Notes: generated from the letters alone by a model not told the origin. Shown: positions 40,681-64,000, counted from the stretch's first letter. The stretch is 64,000 bases of DNA from Elusimicrobiota bacterium (GCA_022709755.1 JAKLIF010000009.1:10694-74693), one strand, 5' to 3'. Made by a program: numbers and translations.

Positions 40681-40723
40681 GAGCGGAATGAGGTCCGGCC
40701 GGAGGTCCCGCGGGGACCGGCGA

Positions 40724-47929: not shown

Positions 47930-47970
47930 GCTCACGTTCCTCCTCGATTCGCAACAACCAACCGATTTCA

Positions 47971-48690
47971 TTATACCGCATATTTCTGTCGAAATCGCTC
48001 GCGATTCCTCTCAAAAAGCTCTTTCGTGTAATGACGGTTCTTCCCCGTGGTCCCGCGCCCGTGATGAAGGACATGAATCCCCGGATGCGCCCACAAATGA
48101 TATCCGGCCCGATGCGCCCGGACGGAAAGGTCCACGTCCTCCCAATAGGCGAAGAACGACTCGTCGAAACCGTTCAGCCCTTCGAAGAGATTCCGGGTGA
48201 CGTAATAGCAAGAACCGGGGATATATTCGGGGAAAGCCAAGCGCCGCGGTTTTTCCGGCATGTTTCGATAATGGGACAACGTATTGGACGGGGGATCCCA
48301 GGATCCCCCGCAAGAATCCAACCGGGTGCGATCCCGGACGAAATGGACCGCCGGAGCCAGCATGTCCACCCGTCGATCGCGCAGAAACCGATGAAGCGCC
48401 GGACGCGGATCCTCGGAAAGGACACAATCGTTGGAGAGGAAAAGAGCGTCGGGAGACGATCGGAACGCCGCCCTCAACCCCTGATTCGCCCCATATCCAT
48501 ATCCCCCGTTCTTTTCCAAGCGGAGCATCGGCAAAGAGGGATAACTCTCACGGATTCGGATCCAATGTCTCTCCTCGGACCCATTGTCGACCCAGAGGAT
48601 GTCCTTCGCTCCGATCCCGCATTCCAGACATGACTCCAAACAGGCCGTCGTCAATCGCGTCTTATTGAACGACAGGACGACAAAAATCAT
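47971..48690 (-). CDS. Glycosyltransferase family 2
   Basis: MIFVVLSFNKTRLTTACLESCL, ILWVDNGSEE and FLSNDCV (DxD-type position), plus a later YWEDVDLSVRA. Confidence 0.8.
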   Translation of the reverse strand: MIFVVLSFNKTRLTTACLESCLECGIGAKDILWVDNGSEERHWIRIRESYPSLPMLRLEKNGGYGYGANQGLRAAFRSSPDALFLSNDCVLSEDPRPALHRFLRDRRVDMLAPAVHFVRDRTRLDSCGGSWDPPSNTLSHYRNMPEKPRRLAFPEYIPGSCYYVTRNLFEGLNGFDESFFAYWEDVDLSVRAHRAGYHLWAHPGIHVLHHGRGTTGKNRHYTKELFERNRERFRQKYAV

Positions 48691-48720: not shown

Positions 48721-51285
48721 ATGATTTTATGTAAAATGAATCCCGATACGATTCCGACCATGAGATCACTCTTACGGCTCCGATTCCTCCGTCTCGCCGG
48801 CCCCCTCCTCTTCCTCTTGTCCTGGGCCGGCCCCGACACAAGCCGGGCCGCCGACATCCCGGCGGCCTCGCCCGTGAGTCTGGCCCCCGAGTTTCAGCCG
48901 CGCCCGATACGACTCCCGCCTCTGTTCTGGCACGAGAAGGACATCCGGGAGAGACAACGCCTCCTCATGGTGCTCATGCTCTACTGGGATTATCAGGAAG
49001 AGGCCAGTTCGCACAAACTCCTCCTCCCCGTCTTCTATCGATGGAAGGAGGAGGACAGAAGCCTGATCGTGTCCCTTCCCCTCTATTTATCATACAAAAG
49101 TCCGGATGATTATTGGACCCTGGCCGGACCGTTCTACCGTCACGACGACCCCCAACGGAAGCGAACGGCCCTCTTCCCCCTTTATTGGAGCACGAAGAAG
49201 AGCAACGGGGGACGCATGACGGTGGCTCTCCCTTTCGTCTTTTACGATTACTCCAATCCCCTTGAAAACCGCCGGGACTTCGTGTCCCCCTTCGGCTGGT
49301 TCCGGCAGCGCCCCTCCACCTCGACGGGTTTCCTGCTCAACTACTGGTGGAAGACGGAGAGTTCCTCCCGATTCAGGACGCTGTTCCCCGTCTATTGGCA
49401 TCTGTGGAGTCCCGGAGACAGACTGGACGTCTGGGGTTTATTCTATCGGCGGGAAACGGACGACAAGAAATGGGCGGGACTGTTCCCCCTGGCGGGGGCC
49501 GGATGGGGCCGGGGATTGGCGTCCCACTATCTCTTTCCGGTCTATTATTATTCACACGACGAGGACGAGACGGCCTTTGCCACGCTCCTGGCGAGCCGGA
49601 TCCGCTCGCCCGACTCGACGAAAGGGCACCTGGGACTCTACTATTACTCCGTCAATCCCGACGAACGGATCCACGGTCTCTTCCCGATCTGGCATCACAG
49701 CCGCTCCTCGGACGATTACAGCCGGCGCACGTGGTTCCTGCTCTATTACAGCCGGAAAGAAAACGATTCCCGTTTCCATACCCTGTTCCCGTTCTACGGT
49801 TACTGGGAATCCCCGGAGAAGAAACGGTTCCTCTCCTGGTTGTATCTCCGGACGGAACAGGAGGACACCGTCTCCGGCTGGGCCGGACTGTATCGATGGA
49901 AAAAAGAGGGGGCCGACGAGACCAACGTCTTCTTCCCCCTCTACTGGCATTTCTGGCGAGATCCGGACTGGGGATTGGACGTCTTTTTCCCGCTCTATCT
50001 GAGGTGGAGGGACGCCGATTCGTCTCTGACGGCGATCCCGCCGTTCCTCTGGCGGAAGAAGGGATCGCGCACGACCTGGAGCCTGTTCTTCCTGCTCTGG
50101 CGCGACCGGGACGCCGACCGGGGATTCACTACGATGTTCCCGCTCTTCCATTCCATGTACGACCCTCAACGCTCCCAGTTTTTCTCGCCCATCGCCTGGA
50201 GACGGAAGAGCCGCCTCTCGAGGGAAGGGATTGTGCCGCCCGTCTATTGGTATCGGAGCGCCGAGATCAAACGACTATTCGTGATCCCGGTCTATTGGAG
50301 CGTCCAACATCCGGAGAAAAGACTGCTCATCGTGCCGCCCTATTATTCCTGGAAGGATTTCGACAGCCGGATTTACGGCCTGTTCCCCCTCTGGGGACAC
50401 CATCGGGAGCAGGACCGGCATGGCGGCTACCTCTTCCCCTTCTATTGGTATTCCAAAAAGACGACGGGAGACGGTGTCTGGATCATCCCGCCTCTGTTGA
50501 CCTACATCCAGAAAGACCGGTCCGGCACGCCGGACTCGGCGCTCCACGTCCAATACCTGATCTTGGGCGATTATTCCAGGAAGAGAGAGGATCTCGAGCA
50601 CGGTTTTTTCCCCCTCTATAAATACGTCTCCTCTCCGGAACGAACGAACTTCTGGGCCCCGCGCATCCTGGCCCTGACCGCCTGGGACCGTCGCGGCGAA
50701 TCGCGCCAGGGATATTTTTTTCCCTACGCCTGGAAACGGGCCCCCGACCGCCGATGGGATTTTCTCTTCCCCCTCTGGTACCGCCACGACGAGACCCGTC
50801 TCGAAGACAACACCACGAGCCGGCTCCGCATCTTCTTCCCTCTCTATTGGAGTGGAACCAACACCCGGCGCGAATGGCGATATTTCGTTCCTCTCTACGC
50901 CCGTTTTTCCTCCGCACATGGAAACCGGTTCCGAGCCGTCACGCCCCTCTACATGAGCTATCAGAACGACCGGGGGAACAGGTTCCGGATGATCTTCCCC
51001 CTCTACTGGCGTTTTGCATCCGCGAAAAGGGATATCTCCATTTACGGGCCTTGGTACCGGACGACCGGCCTGAAGAACGGGAGGACGACGCGAACGGTCG
51101 GGTTGGCTCCCTTCTTCTCCAAGTCTTCGGCCGGGCCGGATGACAATTATTTCGAGCTTCTCGGAGGTCTGTTCGCGAGGGACGTGCAGGAAGGACAGCG
51201 TCGGTTCCGGTTCCTGTATTTCTTCTATACGAAACCGAAGCCGTTGGGCGATCCCGCCCGGAGCGCCCCTCCGTCCGCCGATTAA
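48721..51285 (+). CDS. Secreted aromatic-rich repeat protein (about 40 FPLYW-type units), unknown family
   Basis: 854 aa. Alternative starts are ATG 48736 or ATG 48760; the last gives a clean signal peptide MRSLLRLRFLRLAGPLLFLLSWAGPDTSRA. From aa ~60 to ~800, an ~18-22-aa unit recurs with the core hydrophobic-Pro-[LVFI]-aromatic: LFPLYWST, LFPVYWHLW, LFPVYYYS, LFPIWHHS, LFPFYGYW, FFPLYWHFW, FFPLYLRW, MFPLFHSMY, VIPVYWSV, LFPLWGHH, LFPFYWYS, FFPLYKYV, FFPYAWKR, LFPLWYRH, FFPLYWSG, FVPLYARF, VTPLYMSY, IFPLYWRF. Confidence 0.75.
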   Translation: MILCKMNPDTIPTMRSLLRLRFLRLAGPLLFLLSWAGPDTSRAADIPAASPVSLAPEFQPRPIRLPPLFWHEKDIRERQRLLMVLMLYWDYQEEASSHKLLLPVFYRWKEEDRSLIVSLPLYLSYKSPDDYWTLAGPFYRHDDPQRKRTALFPLYWSTKKSNGGRMTVALPFVFYDYSNPLENRRDFVSPFGWFRQRPSTSTGFLLNYWWKTESSSRFRTLFPVYWHLWSPGDRLDVWGLFYRRETDDKKWAGLFPLAGAGWGRGLASHYLFPVYYYSHDEDETAFATLLASRIRSPDSTKGHLGLYYYSVNPDERIHGLFPIWHHSRSSDDYSRRTWFLLYYSRKENDSRFHTLFPFYGYWESPEKKRFLSWLYLRTEQEDTVSGWAGLYRWKKEGADETNVFFPLYWHFWRDPDWGLDVFFPLYLRWRDADSSLTAIPPFLWRKKGSRTTWSLFFLLWRDRDADRGFTTMFPLFHSMYDPQRSQFFSPIAWRRKSRLSREGIVPPVYWYRSAEIKRLFVIPVYWSVQHPEKRLLIVPPYYSWKDFDSRIYGLFPLWGHHREQDRHGGYLFPFYWYSKKTTGDGVWIIPPLLTYIQKDRSGTPDSALHVQYLILGDYSRKREDLEHGFFPLYKYVSSPERTNFWAPRILALTAWDRRGESRQGYFFPYAWKRAPDRRWDFLFPLWYRHDETRLEDNTTSRLRIFFPLYWSGTNTRREWRYFVPLYARFSSAHGNRFRAVTPLYMSYQNDRGNRFRMIFPLYWRFASAKRDISIYGPWYRTTGLKNGRTTRTVGLAPFFSKSSAGPDDNYFELLGGLFARDVQEGQRRFRFLYFFYTKPKPLGDPARSAPPSAD

Positions 51286-52724
51286 GCGGGGGAGTCGGAT
51301 CTTTTTAAAACGAGGAAGTTCAGAAGAGCTTTCAACCCATCCGCCAACCGGAACAATTCGCGCCAAGACCGGATGCGACAGAGACGTCCGAGCATGTATC
51401 GAGGCCGCAGATAGAACGCCCGATACATCGCGCGGTACATCTCGAGGATCTCGTCGACGGACATCCCGTCGATCCGCATCACGGGTTTGGCCAGGTTGTA
51501 ATCATCCCAGTCATCGGTGAGCAGCCGTCCCTCGCGGCGCGCCTGTTCATACATCTCCGTGCCCGGGAACGGCGTGGTGATATTCACGACCAGGAGCTCC
51601 GGATCGAGTTCTCGGATGAAACGCATGTTCTCCAGGATCACCGCGCGGGTGTCCCCGGGGTTCCCTACCATGAACGCCAAGCGGCAATCGATCCCGGCCT
51701 GTTTGGTCCACGCCACGGCCCGGCGGATCTGATCAAGGCTGATCTCCTTCTTGACGTTCTTCAGGACTGTCTCGCTCGCATTCTCGACCCCGAACATGAT
51801 CTGATGGCATCCCGCCCGGCGCATGAGCCGGAGTTGATCCGGATCCACATGGTTGACCCGGGCGAAGCAGGTCCAAGTGGGCCGATGTGTCCCTTCCATC
51901 AGCAAGCGGCACAATTCCAGGATATTGTTCTTATTCAAAGTCAGCGTGTCATCATAGAACAGGATCTCCCGCACCCCATGGTTATCCATGAGATATCGTA
52001 TCTCCCGGTGGATCGTCGCGGCGCTCTTATAAACAACCTGGGGACCCAGCGTCTTATTGCAGAAGGTGCAATGCCCCGGACATCCGCGCGAGGTGACCAG
52101 GCTCATGGCCGGCAGGTTCTTGAACGTGCCTTTGGCTGGATAATAGCGTGAGATCGGCAACAGGTCATAGGCCGGCATGGGCAAGCCGTCCAGCCGGCCG
52201 ATCCTCGGACGTTCGGGATTCATGACGACCTCGTTTCCCCGCCGATAGGCCAGACCGGCGATCGTCTCGGGGGATCCCCCCGAGAGGAGTTCCGCCAGAG
52301 TGTATTCCCCTTCTCCGCGGACCACGTAGTCGACGAAACCGTTCGACAGGACTTCGGCCGTCTGAAACGTGGCGTGCACTCCGCCGAAGACGATCCGGGC
52401 GTCCGGATAGAACCGTTTCACGATCCGGGCGATATAATAGGCCTTCTTGACCGTCGGCGTCATGGCCGTCAACCCGACGTACCGGATCTCCGAATAGACC
52501 CGCTGATAGGAGCGGACGAAATACTCCTCGAACCCCTCCACCGACGGGCTCATCACGTTGCAATCCACCACGTCCACGGAGAACCCCGTCGACCGTACAT
52601 ATCCCGCCAATTCAGCCAGTCCCAACGGAGGGAAATTCGAACTGATCTGTTCCCAGATGGCTTCCGTGTTCTTGTAAAAGATCGGAGGCGATATCAACAG
52701 ACAATCCAAGGTTTTCGATGTCAT
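51282..52724 (-). CDS. B12-binding-domain (class B) radical SAM protein, 480 aa
   Basis: The N-terminal Rossmann-like region is CLLISPP...PPLGLAELAGYV...VGLTAMT...IVFGGVHAT. The CxxxCxxC triad is SRGCPGHCTFCNK (nt 52059-52082), followed by FYDDT, MFGVENAS and FMVGNPGDT. ATG 52724 forms an ATGA overlap with the upstream stop. Confidence 0.85.
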   Translation of the reverse strand: MTSKTLDCLLISPPIFYKNTEAIWEQISSNFPPLGLAELAGYVRSTGFSVDVVDCNVMSPSVEGFEEYFVRSYQRVYSEIRYVGLTAMTPTVKKAYYIARIVKRFYPDARIVFGGVHATFQTAEVLSNGFVDYVVRGEGEYTLAELLSGGSPETIAGLAYRRGNEVVMNPERPRIGRLDGLPMPAYDLLPISRYYPAKGTFKNLPAMSLVTSRGCPGHCTFCNKTLGPQVVYKSAATIHREIRYLMDNHGVREILFYDDTLTLNKNNILELCRLLMEGTHRPTWTCFARVNHVDPDQLRLMRRAGCHQIMFGVENASETVLKNVKKEISLDQIRRAVAWTKQAGIDCRLAFMVGNPGDTRAVILENMRFIRELDPELLVVNITTPFPGTEMYEQARREGRLLTDDWDDYNLAKPVMRIDGMSVDEILEMYRAMYRAFYLRPRYMLGRLCRIRSWRELFRLADGLKALLNFLVLKRSDSPA

Positions 52725-54961
52725 GGTCTTTTCCCCGGCTCCACCAATCCTCCCATCCAACGGAATTCGCACGGATACCGGCCCCGGTCATCGCGAAACC
52801 AAAACTGATCCGGATCCGGCAACATCTCGACGACCCGCGCCTCCGACGCCTTCAACAGCATGCGGGCGGCGGCCTCGATCAGAAAAAAATTCTTGAAATC
52901 CAACATCATGGGTTTGCGTTCCCCATAGGACTGAATGAACACGTGCCTCGGGAAGCCATAATCCCGCTGGAATCTCAGGAACTCCCGGAACAGGCGCAAC
53001 CCGTTCCCTCCGAAATCATATCGCCCCAAATCCTTCCGGTCAAGCAGCCACCGTTCCCGTTCCAACACGGCCTTCTCGATCTCGATCCGCGGACAATGTT
53101 TGGGAGAGAGTCCGGACAGATAGGCGTGGGGGTAACCGGCATGGGCGATCGATTTGCGCGCATGATATCCCGAAGCGATATCCATCGAATCATAGCGTTT
53201 CCCCCCCGGGGTCAGTTCAATGCCGATGCGGTCATCCTCAAAAATGACACGCGCCCGGCCCGACGGAACACCGCTCGGGCAGGACATCGGGACGGAACAC
53301 CGGTTGGCCGTCCCCACCAGATCGATGAAGTCCAAGAACGAGACATATCTGCAGAAACTCTGTCCGTCATAAAAATACCTATTATCCATGACATGCCCGT
53401 CGACCTCGCCGTAAAAGCGCCGGGCCTTCTCCTCCAGATCCCCCAACGCCTCTTTTCCCCACGCATAGATCAGGCGAAAATAGACCGGGATCGCCTGGGA
53501 ATCATAATCATACTCTCCCAAAACCCAGCGGTATTCCCCCTTGGCGATATCCTCCGCGTCGCCCGCCGCGACGAACAGGTCCCAAAAACTCGCGACGGAA
53601 ACCTTCCCGATCCCCTCCCGTTCGAGCAGTCCGTCCAAAAAATCAAAATCGGACAGACGGCATCGGACCCGATGGGCGTCCATCTTCCCGCTGAACAATT
53701 TTTCCATGTGCTTGCTGATATCGATGTGGATCCGTTCCCCCGAGGGGGATGGTCCGGGATATTTCTTCCGGAACGATTCCAGAACCTCCACGATCTCATT
53801 CCACCAGACGGCCCGGCGGCCCGGCGGATATTGATCCTTCAAAAAGGCGGCCACGTCCCGGGCCCGGGCGACCGTATGCAACAGATACATCTTCCAATGG
53901 ACGGACATCCACTTTTCCACATCCCGTCCGAGTTCGCCCCCGATCCTCATGTCGACGTTCCTCTCCGCGAGATCGAAGAAGAGTCGGCGTCCCATCAATA
54001 TCCGTCCGCTCCCCTCCCGCTCCCCTTCTTCTCCGGTGACGGATTTAAAATATCCCATCAACTCCTCTTCCAGCCGGATTTTCTCGCCGAGCGGCTTCTC
54101 GGACCACAAATCCCCATATCGCCGGAAGCGCCCCAGCACTTGTTCCCAATGGTCTTTCCTCGGGCAATCCGCCGGGAGTCCCCGGACCCAGTCGGACAGG
54201 TCCTCCAACGCATTTCGGCGGCCATGACAGATATAAAGGCCCGAGGAGAGTATCCCGTTGGTGAACAGTCCATCCCACGCGACTCCCGGATCTTCCCCTG
54301 TCCGCCTCAACGCGCGCCGGGTCGTCCCTCTCTCGGAAAGTGCCACCCACTTCAGCTCGTCTCCGGTCAAACCGGGGGAGAGATCGATGTCATTCCTGAA
54401 AAGACGTCCATGATCCATCCGCAATTCCGGATTCAACCGTATCGGCAGATCTTCCTTCAATCCCTCGTCCCGATTCATGGCCTCGGCCAACGCCGCAACG
54501 GCCCACGTTTCCATGAAGGCGACGCGGGGTCGGATCCATCTCCCCGGCTTTTGGACGATCCGGAGGTTGGCCTGCTGTCCTTGGTCATTTCGCCCCCAGA
54601 ACACCGGGCCGAAGTAGGAGTGATTCTCGTTCTTCGCGCAGAAACGCTGCAGATACGAAATGAGAGTGATCTCGCGCTGTCTCATCCGGCTGTTGCGATT
54701 CGGGATCTCTCCTGCGACGATGTTCCGCCCATAGAAACCCCTGTTCTGCAGATAGAGTGCTTCTCGGACATCGGGCCGGAGAAACGTCTCGTAGAGCAGT
54801 CGCCGTTTCTCCTCCAACTCCTCGTGAAAGGGCCTCTCGTCCTCTGTCCCGGCCTGCAACAGGGCATACGTCCGATCGAAGGAGAGCCGGCCGAGCAGCT
54901 CATATTCGATTCCCGTCGACCTGACGATGAACTCAGGCAAGAACTCCCATTTCCCCGTCAT
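52721..54961 (-). CDS. LanB-N-terminal-like (lantibiotic dehydratase glutamylation-domain / PEARL-like) protein, no elimination domain
   Basis: 746 aa from ATG 54961 (ATGA overlap). The N-terminal FLPEFIVRSTGIEYELL matches the LanB f.vR.P.lp pattern. ISYLQRFCAKNENHSYFGPVFWG (nt 54593-54655) matches LanB kYl.R...R.TPFGlF.G. The C-terminal GFPRHVFIQSYGERKPMMLDFKNFFLIE...VVEMLPD matches LanB glPryv.l..gDneL.ldL.n......l...l.E. The protein ends there. By-eye similarity; no HMM was run. Confidence 0.55.
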   Translation of the reverse strand: MTGKWEFLPEFIVRSTGIEYELLGRLSFDRTYALLQAGTEDERPFHEELEEKRRLLYETFLRPDVREALYLQNRGFYGRNIVAGEIPNRNSRMRQREITLISYLQRFCAKNENHSYFGPVFWGRNDQGQQANLRIVQKPGRWIRPRVAFMETWAVAALAEAMNRDEGLKEDLPIRLNPELRMDHGRLFRNDIDLSPGLTGDELKWVALSERGTTRRALRRTGEDPGVAWDGLFTNGILSSGLYICHGRRNALEDLSDWVRGLPADCPRKDHWEQVLGRFRRYGDLWSEKPLGEKIRLEEELMGYFKSVTGEEGEREGSGRILMGRRLFFDLAERNVDMRIGGELGRDVEKWMSVHWKMYLLHTVARARDVAAFLKDQYPPGRRAVWWNEIVEVLESFRKKYPGPSPSGERIHIDISKHMEKLFSGKMDAHRVRCRLSDFDFLDGLLEREGIGKVSVASFWDLFVAAGDAEDIAKGEYRWVLGEYDYDSQAIPVYFRLIYAWGKEALGDLEEKARRFYGEVDGHVMDNRYFYDGQSFCRYVSFLDFIDLVGTANRCSVPMSCPSGVPSGRARVIFEDDRIGIELTPGGKRYDSMDIASGYHARKSIAHAGYPHAYLSGLSPKHCPRIEIEKAVLERERWLLDRKDLGRYDFGGNGLRLFREFLRFQRDYGFPRHVFIQSYGERKPMMLDFKNFFLIEAAARMLLKASEARVVEMLPDPDQFWFRDDRGRYPCEFRWMGGLVEPGKRP

Positions 54962-57228
54962 CGCTCCAATCCCCCCATCCACCGGAACTCCGCCGTATAG
55001 CGGCCTCGTTCATCCTGAAACCACAAGTGTTCGGGATCGGGAAACATCTCCACGATCCGAACCCGTTCACACTTTTTGATCATCTTCGCGAGGACTTCGA
55101 TCAGGAAATAATTCTGGAAATCCAGCAACACCGGTTTCCGCTCCCCGTGGACGCGCACAAACACGTGCCGGGGAAATCCATGATCCCTCCGGAACCGGCT
55201 GAACTCGCGCAGAAGGTCCAGCCCCCGCCGTCCGAAGTCATAGGCCCCGAGGTCGTCCCGGTTCAGTAGCCACTGTTCCCGTTGCAAGACGGCCTTTTCG
55301 ATCTCGATGCGCGGGCAATGTTTCGGCGATACTCCGGCCAGATACGCATGGGGATAGACCAGGTCTCCCAGAGCTCCCTGCCCCATCGAATCCCATTTTA
55401 GGTCCACCGATTCACAGAGGGATCCGTCCGTCGCGTTCCGTATCAGGATCCGCCCGCCACGGACGACGGCTTGGAGCTCCCCGGCGGGGGTCCTGTTCGC
55501 GCAACGCACGGGCAGACTGCATCGTGTGGTCTCATCGACGATATCGGCCCCCTCGATCGCCACATACCGAAAAGGCTGTTTCCCGTCATAGTAGCACCGG
55601 AACGCATACCGCTCCCCGCCCCCCGTGTATCGACGGAGATACCGGGTCAAATCCCGCGGCGAGCCCCGCATCCAGGCGAAGGCGATGTAGTGATTCGAAA
55701 ACAGAACATCCGTCTTATAATGATGCTCACCGAGAACCCACTGATAATTCCCTCTTTCAATCTCTCGCCGATTTTCGGCGGACAAAAGGATGTCCCAGGA
55801 AACCGCGAACCGTTCCGACAAGACACCTTCCGAGGCGATCATGTCATCCAGAAAATCAAAGTCAGCCAGGCGGCAGGAGATGACATGCCCGTCCATCCGC
55901 GTCCCGAACAACCGTTCCATCCTCTTCGTGATCTCCAGATGAATCCTCTGTCCGGACGGGGTATGGGCCGGATGAGAGCGCTGATATTCCTCCCACTTCC
56001 CGATCAATTCCCCCCACCACACGTTCCCCCTTCGCCCGTCGATATAGTCTTTCAGATAACCCCGGGCGTCCCTCACACGCGCCATCGTCTGCAACAGGCA
56101 CAGCTTCCAGTGGACCGACAGCCACTTTTCCACGTCGCGGCCCAATTCCCCGCCGAGGGTCAACGCCGCATTCCGGTGGGCTTCCTCGAAATACAACCGA
56201 CGGCCCACATAGATCTTGCCGCTCGTCTCCCGGACCGCCCGTTCACCCGTCAGTTGGGCGAAATCGTCCATCATCTTCTGTTCCAGGGCGATTTTATCTT
56301 CCAACGATCGAGCGGCGATTTCTTTTTCAGCCTTCCGGAACCGCCCCAGCACGCCGAGCCAATGGCGCCGTCGAGGATGTATCCTTGGGAGATCCTTAAC
56401 CCATTGGATCAGTTCACCCAATGAATCCGCCCTTCCGCGGCAAACATAGAGCCCCTGGGTGAGCAAACCCTTGGCAATCACGCCGGCGAGAGCCGCCCGG
56501 ACTCCTTCTTCTCCCGACGAGGGAGCCAAAGCCCGTTGAACACCGCCGACCGTGCCCCCCCCGGCGGCCAATGACAAGCAGGCGCATTCGATCCGGCTCA
56601 ACCGCCCCGTGAGATCCTCCTCCGCCCGATAGACATGCCCCCGTGAGATCCTCAGATCGTGAGCGAGCCGGATCGGCAGGAATTCCCGAAGGGCCTCATC
56701 GGAACCGATCGCGCGGGCCAACGCCTCGACGGCCCACGTCTCCATAAAAGCCCGACGTTTCTTCAACCACCCGCCGACACCCCTCGTCAACCGCAAGGAT
56801 GCCGTCGCCTTCCCGCTTCGTTTCCCCCAAAAAATCGGACCGAAATAGGCATGTGTCTCATTCTTGCCGCAGAAGCGCTGGAGATACAGGATCAACTTAT
56901 TGTCCGTCACCCGATCATGCTTATTCCTCGTCCTCTTCCCATCGTTTTCAAAATCCTTCATCATCCGCCGATAGACGCCGCTGTTCTGCAAATAGACGGC
57001 CTCCCCCAGATCGGCTCGCAGGAAAATCCCGTGGAGCGCCTTCTGTTTGTCCGACAATTCATCGCGGAATATACGGGCGATCTTCTCCTCGTCGACACAA
57101 GAAGCCGCCCCCCGTATCCCCTCCCACGCGCGATAGGTTTTATCGAATGAAAACCGCTCCATCAACTCATACTCCATCCCGGTCGTGCGCACCACGAATT
57201 CGGGCATGAAGCTCCACCGGGATTTCAT
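54958..57228 (-). CDS. LanB-N-terminal-like protein, paralogue of 52721..54961
   Basis: 756 aa from ATG 57228 (ATGA overlap). It is collinear with its neighbour along the whole length: FMPEFVVRTTGMEYELM, ILYLQRFCGKNETHAYFGPIFWG, GGELGRDVEKWLSVHWKL, HAYLAGVSPKHCPRIEIEKAVL, GFPRHVFVRVHGERKPVLLDFQNYFLIE and RYTAEFRWMGG. Confidence 0.55.
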   Translation of the reverse strand: MKSRWSFMPEFVVRTTGMEYELMERFSFDKTYRAWEGIRGAASCVDEEKIARIFRDELSDKQKALHGIFLRADLGEAVYLQNSGVYRRMMKDFENDGKRTRNKHDRVTDNKLILYLQRFCGKNETHAYFGPIFWGKRSGKATASLRLTRGVGGWLKKRRAFMETWAVEALARAIGSDEALREFLPIRLAHDLRISRGHVYRAEEDLTGRLSRIECACLSLAAGGGTVGGVQRALAPSSGEEGVRAALAGVIAKGLLTQGLYVCRGRADSLGELIQWVKDLPRIHPRRRHWLGVLGRFRKAEKEIAARSLEDKIALEQKMMDDFAQLTGERAVRETSGKIYVGRRLYFEEAHRNAALTLGGELGRDVEKWLSVHWKLCLLQTMARVRDARGYLKDYIDGRRGNVWWGELIGKWEEYQRSHPAHTPSGQRIHLEITKRMERLFGTRMDGHVISCRLADFDFLDDMIASEGVLSERFAVSWDILLSAENRREIERGNYQWVLGEHHYKTDVLFSNHYIAFAWMRGSPRDLTRYLRRYTGGGERYAFRCYYDGKQPFRYVAIEGADIVDETTRCSLPVRCANRTPAGELQAVVRGGRILIRNATDGSLCESVDLKWDSMGQGALGDLVYPHAYLAGVSPKHCPRIEIEKAVLQREQWLLNRDDLGAYDFGRRGLDLLREFSRFRRDHGFPRHVFVRVHGERKPVLLDFQNYFLIEVLAKMIKKCERVRIVEMFPDPEHLWFQDERGRYTAEFRWMGGLER

Positions 57229-59375
57229 GGGCGGCCCCAGACACGAACCGAAACCATCGAATCGCCATCGTAACAACTACCGACTTCAGGACTCATCATG
57301 GAGCGGACATCGACATCGATCGTTTCAATCCTTCGCGCTCCCCGTTGTTTCATCCCCGTATCGACGGCCTCCCAGTCCCCTCCCCGGAGACCGCCGGCCC
57401 AATCCATCCACACGACGACACCGTCCGCCGGCAGGACGTCCATACCCCAATCCAACACGTTATCGAAGACGCCTCCCCCCGATAACCGATCCAAGAGGCC
57501 AGCCGCCACGATCGCGCCGTACTTTTTCCCGAGAGGCTGGCGAATCAACTCATCCAATGGAGTGATCCTCACATTCCCCCAAACCGAGCTGAGCATCAAC
57601 AAATAGGCTTCGTCGAAATAGTTGTCCGTCAAACTGACGCCATCGACTCCATATCCGCCCAGCCTCAACTCTCCGACGGCCGACACGACATTTTCCCCCA
57701 GCAACAGGTATTCCACTCCGACTTCCGGCACCGAGGGATAGACCTTCTTCAGGAGGACCGCCATGAAATCCCGCATCACATACTTCCTCATCTCCGCACG
57801 GATCTGGCGCAGTCCAGGTTCCACCACCCGACTGCCGGGAGGAGTCGTCTCCTTAAGGAATCCAGCCAGCGTCCGAAACAGGGACAATCTCTTTCGCAGG
57901 GGAATCGAATACTCATTGCCATAATCCGCCAATTCGTTGTAATCCGTCAAGAAACCGTCGGAACCGTCCCATTCCTTCTCTTTCCGGAGCCGCCCGATGA
58001 ACTCCTCACAGACGCTCCAGGATCGTTGCGGACCCGCCGCCGTTCCCATGTCCTTCAATATCTTGAGAGCCCCCGGCGTCATTTGAACGAACTTAAAATA
58101 TCGCTGCATGTCGACCGTCTGCTCCACTTCCCGAGAAGAATAGGTGGATGAAGACGAAAAAGAATTGGCGCCATCCTCAGTGTATCGATAACTGTAATGA
58201 TCTCGCCGGTTCCAAAGAAGGGTCCCGGGATATAAGCCGGTCTGATGAACGATCATTTTTCCGACAGGATGAGAGAGGGCCCAATCCATCATGTTCGCAT
58301 GTTTCCCCGGACTATCTCCCGGCAGTCCGAACATGAAATGGGTCTGTATCCTGAGCGACGGGGCCTCACGGCCCAGCCGCCCCAAAGTATCCTCCACGCG
58401 GCGAAGATGGAAGGAGCGGCCGACGGCCCGATGGATCTCCGGGTCGACGGCCTGTATCCCCAACGACAACTCCATATTCCGCACATTCAAATGCGGCAAA
58501 AGTTCGGATGAGATATTCTCGGGGTTTCCGATCATCCGGATCAAGACATCCCGACCACTGGACAATTTTTTAAATTCCCCGAGGAATTCGATCAGATATT
58601 CCGGACTCATATAGGGGTCTGCCGCCGAAAGATAAAAATATCCCTTTCCCTTCTTCGCAAGGATATACTCTATCTCGGACAAGATGCGGTGTGTCGAAAA
58701 ATACCGGGGTTTTTGCCGGCTCCAACTGCAATAGGCGCATCCGATGGGACACCCACGTGCCATTTCGACGATATAGGTCAAGCGGTCGTATTCCGACAAA
58801 TCGATGCCGCCCGTGAGATAGACCGAAGGAATATCATCCAGGGACCCCGACAAGAGGCGCTGTTCCGTCTTCCGATAACGATTCCCGTCCCAAAACACGA
58901 CCCCCCGGATCTTCTCACAACAGAGTGCCCCTTGGAGATGCGCCCCCACTATTTCCGAGAACGCTGCTTCCCCCTCGCCTTGCACCGCCACATCGAACCA
59001 TTTTTCAGTCTCGGTCTCCTCGACTCCCCAGGCACAGGGGCCTCCGATGACGAGCGGGACGCTCCTATTCCGAACCCTCAATGCTTTCGCCACCTTTTTC
59101 ATCGCAGAGAAATTCCACACATAACATGAAAGACCGACCAAATCCGGATCCAGGGAGACGATCTTTTCGACATACTGATCGATTGAGAGCGGGGCGCTGA
59201 AATCATCCTCCACGATCCGGACGTCGCAATCCCCTCCTCCGGGCGCCCGATCCCTCACATAAGCGGCCATGGTTCTCAATCCCATCAAGGGGATCCCGCG
59301 ACGCGCCCTCGTTCCCGCCAACACCGCCCTGTATTTATTCATCGACCCGATGACTCTCAATCGATTTTCCGCCAT
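57225..59375 (-). CDS. Class B radical SAM protein with C-terminal degenerate methyltransferase-like domain (paralogue 1, most divergent)
   Basis: 716 aa. B12-domain-like segments are DLVGLSCYVWN and LVIGGPCAWG. The triad is ARGCPIGCAYCSW (nt 58728-58751), followed by FMFGLPGDS. The tail is EYLLLGENVVSAVGELRLGGYGVDGVSLTD ... LPADGVVVWMD. Confidence 0.8.
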   Translation of the reverse strand: MAENRLRVIGSMNKYRAVLAGTRARRGIPLMGLRTMAAYVRDRAPGGGDCDVRIVEDDFSAPLSIDQYVEKIVSLDPDLVGLSCYVWNFSAMKKVAKALRVRNRSVPLVIGGPCAWGVEETETEKWFDVAVQGEGEAAFSEIVGAHLQGALCCEKIRGVVFWDGNRYRKTEQRLLSGSLDDIPSVYLTGGIDLSEYDRLTYIVEMARGCPIGCAYCSWSRQKPRYFSTHRILSEIEYILAKKGKGYFYLSAADPYMSPEYLIEFLGEFKKLSSGRDVLIRMIGNPENISSELLPHLNVRNMELSLGIQAVDPEIHRAVGRSFHLRRVEDTLGRLGREAPSLRIQTHFMFGLPGDSPGKHANMMDWALSHPVGKMIVHQTGLYPGTLLWNRRDHYSYRYTEDGANSFSSSSTYSSREVEQTVDMQRYFKFVQMTPGALKILKDMGTAAGPQRSWSVCEEFIGRLRKEKEWDGSDGFLTDYNELADYGNEYSIPLRKRLSLFRTLAGFLKETTPPGSRVVEPGLRQIRAEMRKYVMRDFMAVLLKKVYPSVPEVGVEYLLLGENVVSAVGELRLGGYGVDGVSLTDNYFDEAYLLMLSSVWGNVRITPLDELIRQPLGKKYGAIVAAGLLDRLSGGGVFDNVLDWGMDVLPADGVVVWMDWAGGLRGGDWEAVDTGMKQRGARRIETIDVDVRSMMSPEVGSCYDGDSMVSVRVWGRP

Positions 59376-59392
59376 CGCACGACCGCCGAACG

Positions 59393-59424
59393 GGACAAAT
59401 GAACCGTCGACGGTTCATTTGTCC
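59393..59424. repeat. Perfect 32-bp palindrome (16+16, centred on GTCGAC) at the junction between two radical SAM genes
   Basis: ggacaaatgaaccgtc|gacggttcatttgtcc, verified base by base. It covers the TGA stop (59415-59417) of the upstream gene and ends 18 nt before the ATG (59375) of the downstream gene. No U-tract follows it on the coding (minus) strand. Confidence 0.95.
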
Positions 59425-61532
59425 TTCTCCCACAAGAATGAAGACACCCCCGACGCGACCGGTCGGGAAGCGATATATCTGTACCCCAGGGTTTTCAAAA
59501 TCTCCGGGAAACGCTGTCCCCCGTCCGCGTAAACCGCGTCCCGCTCCAGAAAAATCATCGAACCTCCGACCGCCAGTCCGTTCACTTTATCGACCGATCG
59601 GGGATCCCGGGACAATCTCTCCCACATCTCCTCAAAAATGACGGTCCGCCGGTTCTCTTCGGGAAGCGCGGCTCCGAGGGCCGCATAATCCAGGACACGG
59701 ACCGCATCCCATTGACGGCTATACGCCAATTGCAGTATCGACTGATGGGCCTTTTCCGTCAGATCCAATCCCCGCAACGTCCACCCCTCGCCGTTCAAAA
59801 TCTCCACTGTCCTCACCAGGTCACTCCCCACCAACAGGGCCGCAGGAACCCCCGTCTCCCCTTCCGCAATCTTCTTAAGATACCCCGGCAATTCCATCAA
59901 CCACTCGTAACGACGCCGCTGTCGATCGATGATCGCCCGCCAATGGCCCGGCGGCAAACCGAACTCCCCTTCAAGAGACTCGCCATACCCCTTCAGTCCC
60001 TTGAGAACTTCCACCCGCTCCTCCAGGGTGAACGTATTCTCTCCCCCATAATAAAGGCCCCTCCGGCTCCAGTCCATCTCCCGTCGCCGGTCGAGGCTTT
60101 CGCTCATATTTCCCCGCTCTCCGGTCAGATATTCTTTTAATTTTTGATACAGGACCACGTTGGCGTTCCGAATTCGTCCCGACAGGGCTCGTCCCCATCC
60201 CGCCAGCAACGACCTTACGACGGGAATCGTCCTAAACAGATCGATGTATAACCCAAGTTCCTGGGCTCGATCCAGATCCCCTCTGGAGAAGGTGGGGGTC
60301 TCCATGACCTGGTTGAACAAACGCGGTTCATATTTCAATCCATATTCGTCGCGCTTTTCCCACAGTTCCGTTCCGGGCAGCAACCATGTCCGATACACGA
60401 TGATCTGGTTCACATCGAACGACAGACACCAATCCAGCATGTCGATGAACGCCTCGTAAGTGTCTTTCGGCAACCCGAGCATGATCTGAAGCGAGATATC
60501 GGCCCGGGTCAGCTTCGGCAACAGCCGTGACAGTTTCGTCTCTGCTTGCGCCTTGTCGAAACGGCGGGAGATGACCCGCAGCACTTCTGGATTGATGTTT
60601 TGAATGCCGAACGCGAGACGGATCCGAGGGGAATCCATCCAAGCGGTCATCTCCTCCTTCAAATGGAAGAGGTTCCCGGTCAGAGCCAGGACGACGTTCT
60701 TATCAGGGGCCAGCGTCGCAAAGCGGTCGAGGATGGACTTAAAATACTCCCCGTTCATGAACGGATCCGAATCGATGACGGTGATAAATCCCTTCCCCCG
60801 TTCGCGCAGGACATGTTCCATCTCCGCCATCACTCTGTCACCCGAAAAATATCTGGGGCGCTGACCATTGCCGGGACGCTGACAGAACGCGCATGAAAAG
60901 GGGCATCCCCTGGACGTCTGGATGAAGTTGGAGACGGACCGGGCTTTTTTCAGGTCGATCCCCCCGTCGAGATAGGGAGATGGGATGTCATCCAGAGTCC
61001 CGATCGGAGGGCGCGCAGGCGACTCGATGATCCGGTTGCCTTTCCGATACGCCAATCCGGCGACCGACGACTCGTCCTCGTCGTCCCCCCACCGCCGGAG
61101 CAGTTCCGCGAAGGTCACCTCTCCCTCTCCGCGCACGACCACATCGGCCCAGGGCGTCTCCCTCAAAACGGCGGCGGCGTCATAGTCGACATTCGGCCCC
61201 CCCAATACGATCTTGGCCGTCGCGTTTCGATCGCGCACGAGTCGACCGACGGCGTCCACTCCCGGCATGTTCCCGATATAGCATGAAAACCCGATGATAT
61301 CGCCGCCCTTCAACACATCCGCCACCCGCTCCACCTCTCCATCGCGGCGGCAGGAGAATTCCTCGACGACGATTTCATAACGGGCCCTGATGCGTTCGTC
61401 GGACATCGCGTAGGCGCGCAGATAGGCCAAGCTGAGGAATGGAGGCCAATGATCCCCCGAATACATGCCGACCAAAAACACCTTTTTACGCCGGGGCGGC
61501 CCCTGTCGGCGCGCTCCTTCCCGTTTCGTCAT
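59415..61532 (-). CDS. Class B radical SAM protein with C-terminal degenerate methyltransferase-like domain (paralogue 2)
   Basis: 705 aa with KKVFLVGMYSG...FLSLAYLRAYA, DIIGFSCYIGN and IVLGGPNVDY. The triad is SRGCPFSCAFCQR (nt 60882-60905), followed by IMLGLPKDT. The tail is ALLVGSDLVRTVEILNGEGWTLRGLDLTE ... LAVGGSMIFLERD. Confidence 0.8.
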   Translation of the reverse strand: MTKREGARRQGPPRRKKVFLVGMYSGDHWPPFLSLAYLRAYAMSDERIRARYEIVVEEFSCRRDGEVERVADVLKGGDIIGFSCYIGNMPGVDAVGRLVRDRNATAKIVLGGPNVDYDAAAVLRETPWADVVVRGEGEVTFAELLRRWGDDEDESSVAGLAYRKGNRIIESPARPPIGTLDDIPSPYLDGGIDLKKARSVSNFIQTSRGCPFSCAFCQRPGNGQRPRYFSGDRVMAEMEHVLRERGKGFITVIDSDPFMNGEYFKSILDRFATLAPDKNVVLALTGNLFHLKEEMTAWMDSPRIRLAFGIQNINPEVLRVISRRFDKAQAETKLSRLLPKLTRADISLQIMLGLPKDTYEAFIDMLDWCLSFDVNQIIVYRTWLLPGTELWEKRDEYGLKYEPRLFNQVMETPTFSRGDLDRAQELGLYIDLFRTIPVVRSLLAGWGRALSGRIRNANVVLYQKLKEYLTGERGNMSESLDRRREMDWSRRGLYYGGENTFTLEERVEVLKGLKGYGESLEGEFGLPPGHWRAIIDRQRRRYEWLMELPGYLKKIAEGETGVPAALLVGSDLVRTVEILNGEGWTLRGLDLTEKAHQSILQLAYSRQWDAVRVLDYAALGAALPEENRRTVIFEEMWERLSRDPRSVDKVNGLAVGGSMIFLERDAVYADGGQRFPEILKTLGYRYIASRPVASGVSSFLWEKDK

Positions 61533-61592
61533 GCCGGATATCTCATCCTTTCACTTTTCGCAACAGCCTATCAGCCATAACTGTTCCCGCCA

Positions 61593-63734
61593 TCAACTCT
61601 TCTGGAGGATACGCATCACCGGAGCAGGACCGTCTCCCGCTGAATCCCCCCGAAAGCGGTCATTCTTGACATCGATATATCCGCTCTCCGACAGGCGATC
61701 CTCGATCCCCGATCTCTGTCCCGTCACGTTACTGTCCCGAATAAAAACAACAGTCCCTTGCGCTACCAGATTGGCATCGATATAGGCCTTTATCCCGTCC
61801 ATCCACGCTTTCTCGCCATAATCCCGTCCCGTCAGATCCACCAGGATCAAGTCCCGAAGGCCCTCCGACCGTAGAGTCGGCAGATCCGCGGCACAGACCA
61901 CGCGGACTTTATCCCAATGGCGGCTCAGGATCAGAGCTCTGGTGGCATAATAGGGACGGTCAGTCGTATCGATCCCCTCGATACCGAGACCTTCATCCCC
62001 CAATTGATCTATGACCGGGTAGATGTCCGCGCCCAGGAATACGGGTCGTGAAACGGAGGAGCCCTCCTCGGGCCCCTTCCAGCCGGAGAGAATACTCCGC
62101 ACCCAGTCGGGCCGACGATGGTTCCACTCATACCGTTTTCTCTCGATCTTGATCGATTCTTCTATCGAAGGCCAGTGGGCCTCCGACTGATGCCGGATCA
62201 GCAGGAGACGGGCGTATTCAGACAGTTCCTTCAGCAGCGCTATCCGCAAATCATGCTCCAGTGTCGCTTCGTTTCCCCAATAAACTCCCCGCCGGCTCCA
62301 ATCCATCGCATGATCCAGAGACAACCGCTCCGCCACCGGTGACCCGGGACGCATCGTGTATTCCAAAAATTGTTCGTACACGGCCAGATAGGAGTGTTCC
62401 ATCCGTCCTTCCAATATCCCGCCCAATTCCCCCAGGATCCGTTTAACCATGGGCAGGGTGCGGAAAAGATTGATATAGGTGCCGACACGGAACGCCTGAT
62501 CCATCTCCTTTCGAGGGAAAGTGGCGGTCTCATATATCTCATTCAGTGATTTCGGTTCGTGTTGGAGCCCGTAATCCCCACGAATATCCCACATCCCGCT
62601 CCCGGGCAGGAGATTCGTCCTAAACACGGACACCTCCGGCATTCTCCATGACAAACCCCAATTGAGGCTCTGGCGAAAACCTTCGGGAGTATCCCCCGGC
62701 AACCCGAGCATGAAATGAAGTATCTTCAGGCTCTTGGGAGATTGCTCGTCGATTTTCCGCAACACTGCCTCGGTTTTTCCCTTGTCGAAACCGCGCGTCA
62801 CGATCTTCAGACATTCCTTATTGGTGCTTTGGATGCCCAACGCGAGGATGATCTGAGGGGAATCCGTGGCAGGCAACAAACCGTCCTTGATATGGATGGG
62901 GTTCCCGTTCGCCAACAGGAGCGCGTTCCTCCCTTTCGCCATCGACAAAAATCCGCTCAATATCTTTCGATAGTGGCTCTCGTTCATGAACGGATCCGCT
63001 TCGATCAACACGAAAACCCCCTTCCCTCTCTTCCGGAGGATATATCTCATCTCCTCCGTTACCCTGTCGATCGGAAAATAGCGGGGTTTATGACGTTGAC
63101 CGGGGCGCTGACAATATTTACATGAGAACGGACAGCCCCTGGAAACCTCGATAAAGTTGAAGACCGTTCCCACGTGATCCAAATCGATCACCCCGGTCAG
63201 ATAGGGGGACGGAAAACGGGACATATCGTCAGGGATCGGACGGTCCTCCGTCGACCGGACATCCTCTCCATCACGAAAAGTCAGTCCCTTGATCGCGCTC
63301 AGTCCCCCGGATCCCATCCTCGCTTTGATCAGTTCCAAAAACGTCTCTTCTCCATCCCCCCTCACCACCATATCCGCCCACGGCGAATTCCCCAGCACCC
63401 CGGCGGGATCCGCATAGGCACTGGGGCCGCCTAGCACGATCTCGGGAGAATCGGGACTCGCTCCCAACAGCCGCCCCACGGTTTGGACCTCGTCCATATT
63501 CCAGATATAGCACGTGAACCCGATCAGATCCGGCTTCTCCGCCATCACCCCGGACACGATTGATGCGGGACCGGTATCCTTATCATAAAAATATTCCTTG
63601 ATGACGATCTCGCATCCGTCCCGCACCGCCGCATCGGCCATGGCGTACGCCTTCAAACTGGGCAAACTCAGGAAGAGATGCCCGCGTTGGGTCTGGATCC
63701 CGACCAACACGATCTTCATCTTCCGCAAGTTCAT
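61593..63734 (-). CDS. Class B radical SAM protein with C-terminal degenerate methyltransferase-like domain (paralogue 3)
   Basis: 713 aa from ATG 63734 (ATGA overlap with the upstream stop; the track start is 63755). It has MKIVLVGIQT...FLSLPSLKAYA, DLIGFTCYIWN and IVLGGPSAYA. The triad is SRGCPFSCKYCQR (nt 63111-63134), followed by FMLGLPGDT. The tail is VFLGADIYPVIDQLGDEGLGIEGIDTTD ... VAQGTVVFIRD. Confidence 0.8.
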   Translation of the reverse strand: MNLRKMKIVLVGIQTQRGHLFLSLPSLKAYAMADAAVRDGCEIVIKEYFYDKDTGPASIVSGVMAEKPDLIGFTCYIWNMDEVQTVGRLLGASPDSPEIVLGGPSAYADPAGVLGNSPWADMVVRGDGEETFLELIKARMGSGGLSAIKGLTFRDGEDVRSTEDRPIPDDMSRFPSPYLTGVIDLDHVGTVFNFIEVSRGCPFSCKYCQRPGQRHKPRYFPIDRVTEEMRYILRKRGKGVFVLIEADPFMNESHYRKILSGFLSMAKGRNALLLANGNPIHIKDGLLPATDSPQIILALGIQSTNKECLKIVTRGFDKGKTEAVLRKIDEQSPKSLKILHFMLGLPGDTPEGFRQSLNWGLSWRMPEVSVFRTNLLPGSGMWDIRGDYGLQHEPKSLNEIYETATFPRKEMDQAFRVGTYINLFRTLPMVKRILGELGGILEGRMEHSYLAVYEQFLEYTMRPGSPVAERLSLDHAMDWSRRGVYWGNEATLEHDLRIALLKELSEYARLLLIRHQSEAHWPSIEESIKIERKRYEWNHRRPDWVRSILSGWKGPEEGSSVSRPVFLGADIYPVIDQLGDEGLGIEGIDTTDRPYYATRALILSRHWDKVRVVCAADLPTLRSEGLRDLILVDLTGRDYGEKAWMDGIKAYIDANLVAQGTVVFIRDSNVTGQRSGIEDRLSESGYIDVKNDRFRGDSAGDGPAPVMRILQKS

Positions 63735-64000
63735 GCGGCCCCCCCCCGACTCCACACGTCGGCCGACACCTGTTTCCCGGCGGATTCGCCGATCACGGCT
63801 CTCTCCACCCGATGAAATCCCAGGCGACCGACTATTTCCTCAGACTCGTTCTCTGGCGCCGGATCATCCGGGCCGATGAAAGCCAAGCATCCCCCGGAGG
63901 ACAAGACATCCCCCACGGACGCCAAAGTTTCCCGAAGGGACCTATCCCGTTTGAGTCGCTCCGCCATCCCCTCGACGATGACCGCTGGATACCGTTCGGA
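63731..64000 (-). CDS. 3' end of a gene continuing beyond the window; its C-terminus resembles the methyltransferase-like tails of the downstream radical SAM paralogues
   Basis: The reverse frame is open from 64000 down to the TGA at 63731 (...PERYPAVIVEGMAERLKRDRSLRETLASVGDVLSSGGCLAFIGPDD...). LSSGGCLAFIGPD aligns with LAVGGSMIFLERD and VAQGTVVFIRD. The track lists only the internal Met at 63967. Confidence 0.6.
   Translation of the reverse strand, partial: SERYPAVIVEGMAERLKRDRSLRETLASVGDVLSSGGCLAFIGPDDPAPENESEEIVGRLGFHRVERAVIGESAGKQVSADVWSRGGAA

Follow-up and report, generated by a model that had tools for sequence, protein, structure and literature searches.

Predicted PEARL-type ligase paralogues in a radical SAM operon of an Elusimicrobiota bacterium

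Two tandem paralogues, A and B

The window analysed here is a 64,000-nucleotide stretch of DNA from an Elusimicrobiota bacterium (GCA_022709755.1, JAKLIF010000009.1:10694-74693). It contains two adjacent long open reading frames (ORFs), A and B, which lie head to tail on the minus strand and are the subject of this analysis. Gene B (54958..57228) encodes 756 amino acids from an ATG start, and its mechanically defined ORF extends to a TTG at 57276. Gene A (52721..54961) encodes 746 amino acids from an ATG at 54961, or 753 amino acids from a GTG start at 54982 (52721..54982); residue numbers for A follow the longer form. The span singled out by an original prediction on this DNA, 52721-57228, is exactly the interval from the stop codon of A to the ATG of B. 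That prediction held the two products to be single-domain enzymes of the small LanB or PEARL-like type. PEARLs, described a few years ago, add amino acids from charged tRNA to a carboxyl group without the ribosome.

The two proteins align over their full length in BLASTP (46% identity and 65% positives across 758 columns; 674 bits, E = 0), a likeness far beyond chance that agrees with their description as collinear, roughly half-identical tandem paralogues. The shared motifs quoted in the original prediction are all present at the places given: FLPEFIVRSTG at residues 14-24 of A, with FMPEFVVRTTG as its counterpart in B; YLQRFCAKNENHSYFGP at residues 110-126 of A (54605..54655, minus strand), with YLQRFCGKNETHAYFGP at residues 115-131 of B (56836-56886, minus strand); and, towards the C-terminal end of each protein, GFPRHVF, GERKP[MV][ML]LDF and VEM[LF]PDP. 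Both genes have coding-like codon-position GC (GC3 of 0.71-0.72 and GC2 of 0.42-0.44, in a genome of 58-60% GC). A 760-aa ORF on the plus strand (52718..55000), antisense to A, failed the same codon-position GC filter; it is read as a shadow ORF of the kind typical of GC-rich DNA, and could mislead gene callers.

Both chains end 12-14 residues past the last conserved motif, a Glu-x-Arg, so no elimination domain is fused to either of them. Four full-length LanBs used for comparison (P0009-P0012) run more than 300 residues further and carry PF14028. A full-length LanB of about 1000 residues with both domains was rejected as an identity for either gene, as A (746 or 753 residues) and B (756 residues) lack PF14028.

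A third paralogue, C, lies about 17 kb past the window end. It is visible because contigs with identical proteins, one of them from an Elusimicrobiota-labelled metagenome-assembled genome (GCA_035390445.1), extend the view past the window. C (L008:10001-12271) is encoded on the same strand as A and B; its 756-aa product is 34% identical to A. It is annotated by NCBI as a 'lantibiotic dehydratase' (HOW27780.1), a name that is almost certainly wrong.

Family, fold and active-site residues

Both proteins match the Pfam family PF04738 (Lant_dehydr_N) well above its gathering cutoff of 28 bits, A with 47.5 bits and B with 48.3; an NCBIfam scan returned no match for either. In phmmer, B alone reaches E = 5e-5 against TbtB (PDB 6EC7), the split LanB responsible for glutamylation in thiomuracin biosynthesis. 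A profile of eight sequences reaches TbtB at 1e-24 and GodF at 6e-11, and a profile of 149 family members searched against the PDB recovers them at E = 7.6e-32 and 1e-10, respectively. The AlphaFold2 model of A has a mean pLDDT (predicted local distance difference test) score of 71 and a predicted template modelling (pTM) score of 0.71, with residues 492-575 unmodelled. In Foldseek, this model matches MadB, TbtB, GodF, MibB and NisB (E = 3e-19 to 1e-13, probability 1.00), and LanB-type structures, through their glutamylation domains, are its only significant matches. Neither a different fold at high confidence nor a LanB match at background level was returned, and the LanB relationship claimed in the original prediction stands. 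The next matches, which are not significant, are D-Ala-D-Ala ligases and tubulin tyrosine ligase, all ATP-grasp enzymes; these fit the proposed ATP-grasp ancestry of PEARLs.

The 149-sequence profile also matches the PqqD structures 5SXY (E = 0.0025) and 3G2B (E = 0.0078) over profile positions 252-326. These map to residues 182-246 of A (54245..54439, minus strand), which form three strands followed by three helices in the model, the topology of the recognition element (RRE) of enzymes for RiPPs, peptides made by the ribosome and modified after translation. The PqqD/RRE match was seen only with this family profile; it was not found with the eight-sequence profile, or with A or B alone. The RRE-like region spans the family, including a relative from Amycolatopsis nivea (P0006) whose gene lies in a cluster of non-ribosomal peptide synthetase (NRPS) and polyketide synthase (PKS) genes. 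Its presence argues that a peptide could be bound.

Word-indexed searches with A and the eight-sequence profile returned 8-12 relatives and gave the impression of a tiny family. An exhaustive profile search covering 1.84 billion cluster representatives showed this to be an artefact of sensitivity: 7,025 proteins were found at E <= 1e-3 and 1,884 at E <= 1e-30, and the best 150 are nearly all single-domain proteins of 700-900 residues, matched end to end. The family consensus reads Y-[LA]-Q-R-[YF]-C-x-K-N-[DE]-T-I-G-F-F-G-P, with a C-terminal E-M-L-P...W-L...Y-T-S-E-[LF]-R. Within the core, K-N-[DE]-T-x-x-F-F-G-P, the F, G and P of FGP occur in 146, 149 and 148, respectively, of the 149 members of the family alignment (A2), to which all conservation counts here refer. 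The corresponding core is KNE[NT]H[SA]YFGP in A and B and KNDTSSFFGP in an orthologue of the PEARL TglB. The original prediction took the [SA]YFGP of A and B as the mark of a divergent branch. Because YFGP follows a family-wide consensus it is no sign of such a branch, but A and B do form a lineage-specific clade, about 20-25% identical to the rest of the family.

No protein more than 30% identical was found in the 185,579 species-representative genomes scanned. A rough neighbour-joining tree groups A, B and C together, with C as sister to A and B; this clade falls inside the small-LanB/PEARL group, on a long branch from the full-length LanBs, and the sequences nearest to it come from Omnitrophota and Acidobacteriota. 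On three unrelated metagenomic or Omnitrophota contigs (L016:151-4558, L015:1646-8553 and L044:10016-14188), a PEARL-like gene is followed directly by a gene for a 630-640-aa protein containing tetratricopeptide (TPR) repeats, in L044 among housekeeping genes. This pair looks like a conserved two-gene module.

The distinction between PEARLs and split LanBs can be drawn from a small number of residues. In TglB, Asp542 and Arg803 are required for ATP-dependent phosphorylation and are conserved only in PEARLs, with Tyr and Leu in their place in split LanBs, and the equivalents of TbtB Arg743, Phe783 and Glu851 are common to all these enzymes (PMC11117183). Here, the residues that are invariant or nearly so across the 149 members, all of them present in A, B and C, are (in A numbering): R21, Y110, Q112, R113, K117, N118, F124, G125, P126, R332, D468, E490, R632, R642, W645, F682, K690, P691, D695, E719, P722, W728, E739 and R741. 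Conservation is complete (149/149) for R113, the N and G of the core, D468 and R741, and reaches 148/149 for E490 and E739 and 146/149 for Y110.

Asp468 of A, the equivalent of the PEARL-only ATP/Mg-site residue TglB Asp542, lies in FWDLFV (53570..53587, minus strand), with SWDILL (55783-55800, minus strand) as its counterpart in B. Glu490, the equivalent of TglB Glu564, lies in WVLGEYD (53507..53527, minus strand), which also places Asp492 where a His is usual; the counterpart in B is WVLGEHH (55720-55740, minus strand). The phosphorylation-site pair Glu739-x-Arg741, equivalent to TglB Glu801 and Arg803, lies in CEFRW (52757..52771, minus strand) in A and in AEFRW (54979-54993, minus strand) in B. 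The counterparts of Asp468, Glu739 and Arg741 are D479, E747 and R749 in B, and D480, E744 and R746 in C.

These equivalences were drawn through an 813-aa protein of Pseudomonas haemolytica from the species-representative genome scan, which is identified as a TglB orthologue by its tgl-type cluster: two genes directly precede its own, one with PF05114 (MbnB/TglH) and one of 262 aa, the size of TglI, and a gene for an M50 protease lies upstream. Its residues R10, D541, E563, H565, E800 and R802 are at most one position off the published TglB Arg10, Asp542, Glu564, Glu801 and Arg803, and they align column for column with R21, D468, E490, D492, E739 and R741 of A. The four full-length LanBs with PF14028 (P0009-P0012) served as a negative control: their core is R-[ST]-T-P-F-G-L-F, Asp, Glu and His are all missing from the columns of the ATP site, and the E-x-R of the family is replaced by H-E-L-T or N-E-I-V, which puts T or V at the Arg position. 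The core of TbtB, aligned by the family profile, is KTSPYSTF.

Residues predicted to contact tRNA are likewise retained. In BhaB7, roles in binding the CCA end and ATP have been modelled, and in some cases tested by mutagenesis, for Tyr205, Arg208, Arg429, Arg715, Phe755, Glu813 and Arg815 (PMC11962472). The spacings in A (Y110-R113, +3; R113-R332, +219; R642-F682, +40; F682-E739, +57; E739-R741, +2) reproduce those of BhaB7, which suggests that Y110 and R113, in the YLQRFCAKNENHSYFGP stretch, correspond to the tRNA 3'-CCA contacts Tyr205 and Arg208. All three paralogues have Y110, R113, R332, R21 and the presumed adenine clamp R642 and F682 (Arg715 and Phe755 in BhaB7), and at least 146 of the 149 members share each of these residues.

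The neighbourhood is informative in its own right, as PEARLs do not co-occur with PF14028 elimination domains (PMC11212132). No PF14028 gene was found among the called genes of the extended contigs or the window genes scanned. A hidden Markov model of the elimination domain, built from the four LanBs and scoring more than 500 bits on its own positive controls, gave no hit below E = 1.2 when the window and the 22-kb locus L008 were translated in six frames; no elimination domain is encoded within these 86 kb. The proteins stop where such a domain would begin, as the original prediction stated, and none is encoded nearby.

Assignment, substrate and alternative explanations

The residues and the neighbourhood both indicate a PEARL. 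Judged from sequence and predicted structure, A and B, and C with them, are likely to be PEARL-type, ATP- and aminoacyl-tRNA-dependent ligases that have no elimination partner and are not halves of a split LanB. The small-LanB or PEARL-like reading of the original prediction is thereby borne out and narrowed to PEARL over split LanB by the Asp, the Glu-x-Arg and the lack of PF14028. Homology, fold, conserved residues and operon structure are what was observed; dependence on ATP and tRNA, the identity of the amino acid and the substrate are predicted from them.

Several points weigh against this assignment. The model of A is of moderate quality (mean pLDDT 71), and residues 492-575 are missing from it. 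Identity to the TglB orthologue is only about 21%; known PEARLs are mutually just 20-40% identical. The Tyr/Leu state of split LanBs is taken from PMC11117183, as the profile alignment to TbtB ends at residue 839, and the equivalence of tRNA contacts between A and BhaB7 is drawn from spacing and family conservation rather than from direct alignment. The His two residues after the Mg-binding Glu, which is highly conserved in PEARLs (PMC11117183) and present in 146 of 149 family members, is kept in B but is Asp in A and Asn in C; A and C could therefore behave differently. A and C may nevertheless bind metal, since Asn is found at this position in glutathione synthetase, which represents the proposed ancestor type (PMC11117183). 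Finally, a search of small ORFs in L008 and the window found no gene for a carrier or scaffold peptide in the cluster: neither operon described below has an intergenic gap of more than about 80 nt, and a scan of small ORFs for F[ND]L[DEN], after the F[ND]LD-type recognition motif of LanBs, gave only hits antisense to coding genes.

A and B belong to an operon of nine genes on one strand, in the order rSAM1-6, B, A, rSAM7. Start and stop codons overlap as ATGA between rSAM6 and B, between B and A, and between A and rSAM7, so that these four genes are translationally coupled. rSAM1-6 are tandem genes for B12-binding radical S-adenosylmethionine (SAM) enzymes of about 700 residues, paralogues that are 26-28% identical (57225-64000; L008:15148-21484). 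Within the window, all on the minus strand, they comprise rSAM6 (57225..59375; 716 aa) and rSAM4 (61593..63734; 713 aa), both paralogues of rSAM5; rSAM5 itself (59415..61532; 705 aa); and the last 89 codons of rSAM3 (63731..64000), which end in ...DVWSRGGAA* and match L008:19352-21484. rSAM2 and rSAM1 continue the operon past the window on the longer contigs. rSAM5, the one radical SAM enzyme of the operon that was searched against solved structures, matches TokK (7KDX, E = 6.6e-36) and CysS (9N1B, E = 8e-23) over the B12 and radical SAM core in phmmer; rSAM6 was assigned by Pfam and NCBIfam matches. The C-terminal region of about 270 residues in these enzymes has no match, and its AlphaFold model (pLDDT 53) is too poor for use. 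The last gene, rSAM7 (51282..52724, minus strand), encodes a 480-aa B12 radical SAM enzyme with PF02310 and PF04055; in NCBIfam it comes closest to HpnJ and BchE, with scores that fall far short of their cutoffs.

C belongs to an upstream operon with genes for a beta-helix protein, a DgcN-like DUF1611 protein and a glutamine-synthetase-like ligase, followed by C, a GT4 glycosyltransferase and a PBP4B-like serine hydrolase. An Amidase_6 gene lies on the opposite strand between this operon and that of A and B.

The proposed reaction, modelled on characterised PEARLs, would proceed at an ATP-grasp-like site formed in A by Asp468, Glu490, Glu739, Arg741, Arg642 and Phe682, which with ATP and Mg2+ would phosphorylate the carboxylate of the substrate. 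The amino group of a specific aminoacyl-tRNA, its 3'-CCA end held by Tyr110, Arg113, Arg332 and Arg21, would then attack the acyl phosphate. Six tandem TokK/CysS-type paralogues, as tested for rSAM5, and an HpnJ/BchE-like seventh enzyme suggest that the ligases and the radical SAM enzymes act on the same molecule. Most probably, the PEARLs would load or extend amino acids on a molecule that the radical SAM enzymes then C-methylate repeatedly, and the product would be a natural product derived from an amino acid or a short peptide.

What that molecule is bears on one part of the original prediction, that the two enzymes modify peptides. No gene for a carrier or precursor peptide was found, and some characterised PEARLs act on small molecules, so this part goes beyond what was found. 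A carrier peptide is typical of PEARLs but not universal, as SnaE and SinB1/SinB2 do without one. With no local carrier gene found, the substrate would be a small non-ribosomal molecule or else a carrier peptide whose gene lies elsewhere in the genome. The latter would be a classical pearlin pathway, in which A, B and C act at the C-terminal end of a carrier made by the ribosome, the appended residue is modified by the radical SAM enzymes while still attached, and a protease releases the product. Such a pathway is a real possibility, though not the one we would expect: most characterised PEARLs use a carrier, TglB too is predicted to contain an RRE, the region at residues 182-246 of A has the matching topology, and hydrolases are near (the PBP4B-like serine hydrolase, the Amidase_6 protein and an M48 peptidase encoded at 46180-47472). 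Against it stand the short intergenic gaps without a candidate gene, the antisense position of every F[ND]LD small ORF, an RRE match obtained with the family profile and not with A or B, and the SnaE-type and SinB-type enzymes that work carrier-free. On the other side, a tRNA-fed, carrier-free assembly line may tentatively be suggested, in which the three PEARLs would add amino acids successively to a small primer for the radical SAM enzymes to C-methylate. The primer might come from the glutamine-synthetase-like and DgcN-like enzymes of the upstream operon, and the six TokK-like enzymes and the seventh would install many C-methyl groups, for example as isopropyl or tert-butyl side chains. If this is true, a candidate-phylum anaerobe would be making a short peptide with many methyl groups, independently of ribosome, NRPS and scaffold peptide.

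Other explanations concern the ligases themselves. It is unlikely that only some of the paralogues are catalytic, with A and C as regulatory or substrate-presenting partners of a canonical B, for example in an A/B heterodimer that translational coupling would allow. The conserved His is kept in B only, and the B-A ATGA overlap favours equimolar synthesis, but A, B and C all retain the full remaining set of catalytic and tRNA-contact residues, a metal could plausibly be bound by Asp or Asn, and characterised multi-PEARL clusters assign each PEARL its own step. Extension of the C-terminus of a protein, rather than synthesis of a small molecule or peptide, is quite improbable. Three observations would fit it: Omnitrophota relatives have housekeeping genes (BirA, pantothenate kinase) as neighbours, with nothing but a TPR-protein gene following them; BhaB7 can extend tagged proteins; and tubulin tyrosine ligase is among the weak fold matches. 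No target protein suggests itself, however, and the operon of A and B also encodes seven B12 radical SAM enzymes; rSAM5, the only one searched against solved structures, is nearest to the small-molecule methylases TokK and CysS. Least credible is a split LanB (LanBB), in which A and B would esterify Ser or Thr with Glu from Glu-tRNA and rely on a separate elimination protein, as in thiopeptide and goadsporin biosynthesis. TbtB and GodF are the nearest solved structures by sequence, and about 750 residues is within the size range of glutamylation-only enzymes, although TbtB (861 aa) and GodF (867 aa) are longer. A YcaO gene would also suit a split LanB; it lies about 9 kb upstream of C, but on the opposite strand, with Endonuclease V and three tRNA genes in between. 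No PF14028 gene and no gene for a precursor peptide was found in the 86 kb, A and B have the Asp and Arg found only in PEARLs where a split LanB would have Tyr and Leu, and their KN[ED]..[FY]FGP core differs both from KTSPYSTF of TbtB and from R.TPFGLF of full-length LanBs.

Comparison with characterised systems supports the same placement. TglB and TmoB, the Cys-adding PEARLs of the 3-thiaglutamate and 3-thiahomoleucine pathways, like A and B consist of a glutamylation-like domain without an elimination domain. The sequence features common to both sides are the N-terminal Arg and KN[DE]T..FFGP, the ATP-site residues (Asp, Glu and Glu-x-Arg), the Arg/Phe pair that clamps adenine, and the RRE-like region; identity is about 21% for the TglB orthologue. 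The tmo cluster likewise combines a PEARL (TmoB) with a sequentially methylating B12 radical SAM enzyme (TmoD). The tgl and tmo clusters place a carrier peptide, a DUF692 enzyme and a metalloprotease beside the PEARL, none of which is in the operon of A and B, and the A/B/C cluster differs from them in having three PEARLs and seven radical SAM enzymes. TbtB and GodF are of similar size to A and B and share their fold and their C-terminal block (PRxxxxxxV..R..W ... F ... KP..D ... E.LPDP); unlike PEARLs they work with a separate elimination protein and Glu-tRNA and without ATP, and the TbtB core KTSPYSTF replaces KN[DE]T..FFGP of the family.

The pyrroloiminoquinone clusters likewise contain more than one PEARL (AmmB1-4; BhaB1/4/5/7), each of which presumably attaches its own amino acid; compared by description, the amm and bha clusters have a carrier (AmmA, BhaA) and flavin or quinone enzymes in place of B12 radical SAM enzymes. 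SnaE (threopeptin) and SinB1/SinB2 (sinefungin) act on small non-ribosomal substrates alongside other biosynthetic enzymes. They use no carrier peptide, and none was found in the A/B cluster; the sin cluster likewise includes a B12 radical SAM enzyme (SinC). The relative P0006 resembles SnaE in lying in an NRPS-PKS cluster; SnaE was not among the best 120 of 289 matches to a homologue search seeded with P0006. The A/B cluster has no NRPS, PKS or nucleoside enzymes, unlike those of SnaE and SinB1/SinB2, and the link to them is one of gene context only. For the radical SAM enzymes, the precedents are TokK, ThnK and CysS, cobalamin-dependent sequential C-methyltransferases, two of which (TokK and CysS) are matched by rSAM5. 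Six tandem TokK-like copies in one operon are unusual, and the unmatched C-terminal region sets them apart.

A and B are new, lineage-specific members of the known PEARL family, and their operon is unusual in scale and not in kind, given the precedents of TmoB/TmoD, of the sinefungin PEARLs with a B12 radical SAM enzyme and of the multi-PEARL amm and bha clusters. To our knowledge, fewer than about 20 PEARLs have been characterised, nearly all of them from Actinomycetota, Pseudomonadota and Bacillota, and we know of no means as yet to predict their amino-acid specificity or substrate range. Here, an uncultured Elusimicrobiota bacterium has three intact PEARL paralogues, no local carrier gene, and a coupling of A and B to B12 radical SAM enzymes. 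This makes the locus a target for genome mining, both for a new, probably poly-methylated amino-acid or peptide natural product and for PEARLs that may accept small substrates. It also suits the question of whether His to Asp or Asn at the metal site matters. For annotation, the database name of C is misleading.

Genomic surroundings

No link between Elusimicrobiota and these enzymes was found in the literature searched. A defence or phage origin was rejected, as A, B and C have no PADLOC or PHROGs matches; rSAM5 and rSAM6 match the PADLOC candidate family PDC-M51A (E down to 6e-43), which most likely reflects generic B12 radical SAM homology. A conserved module of a PEARL with rSAM7, considered because a 480-aa B12 radical SAM enzyme is encoded near the relative on the Omnitrophota contig L035, was not upheld, that enzyme being only 25% identical to rSAM7.

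The whole region is flanked by tRNA-Thr and tRNA-Phe genes in the window and by tRNA-Val and tRNA-Asp genes beyond it. Just after tRNA-Asp, at L008:4154-4570, direct repeats of about 97-99 nt form an array that is partly N-masked; at the end of every unit stand the final ~18 nt of tRNA-Asp and then a T-run. The array might mark an integration site of the cluster; no matching copy of the tRNA-Asp-end repeat was found in the window. The YcaO-domain gene mentioned above (L008:1-654, minus strand) encodes a 587-aa product cut by the end of the locus and is probably unrelated to the cluster.

Downstream, rSAM7 meets a convergent plus-strand gene (48721-51285). Their 3' ends overlap by 4 nt and therefore leave no room for a terminator. 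The 854-aa product has a hydrophobic, signal-peptide-like N-terminal stretch and many FPLYW-type repeats, and only a weak NCBIfam match, to LA_1737. Between the M48 peptidase gene and a GT2 glycosyltransferase gene, a small protein without a family is encoded on the minus strand (47498-47971); its N-terminal half is rich in Lys (KKKTTKKKVTKKK...) and its C-terminal half faintly resembles domain 2 of EF-Tu. The rest of the window is ordinary chromosome, with SecDF, Tgt, QueA and RuvABC. Two neighbouring minus-strand genes at 38284-43795 encode proteins of 798 and 1023 residues, each combining an O-antigen-ligase domain (Wzy_C) with many TPR repeats.

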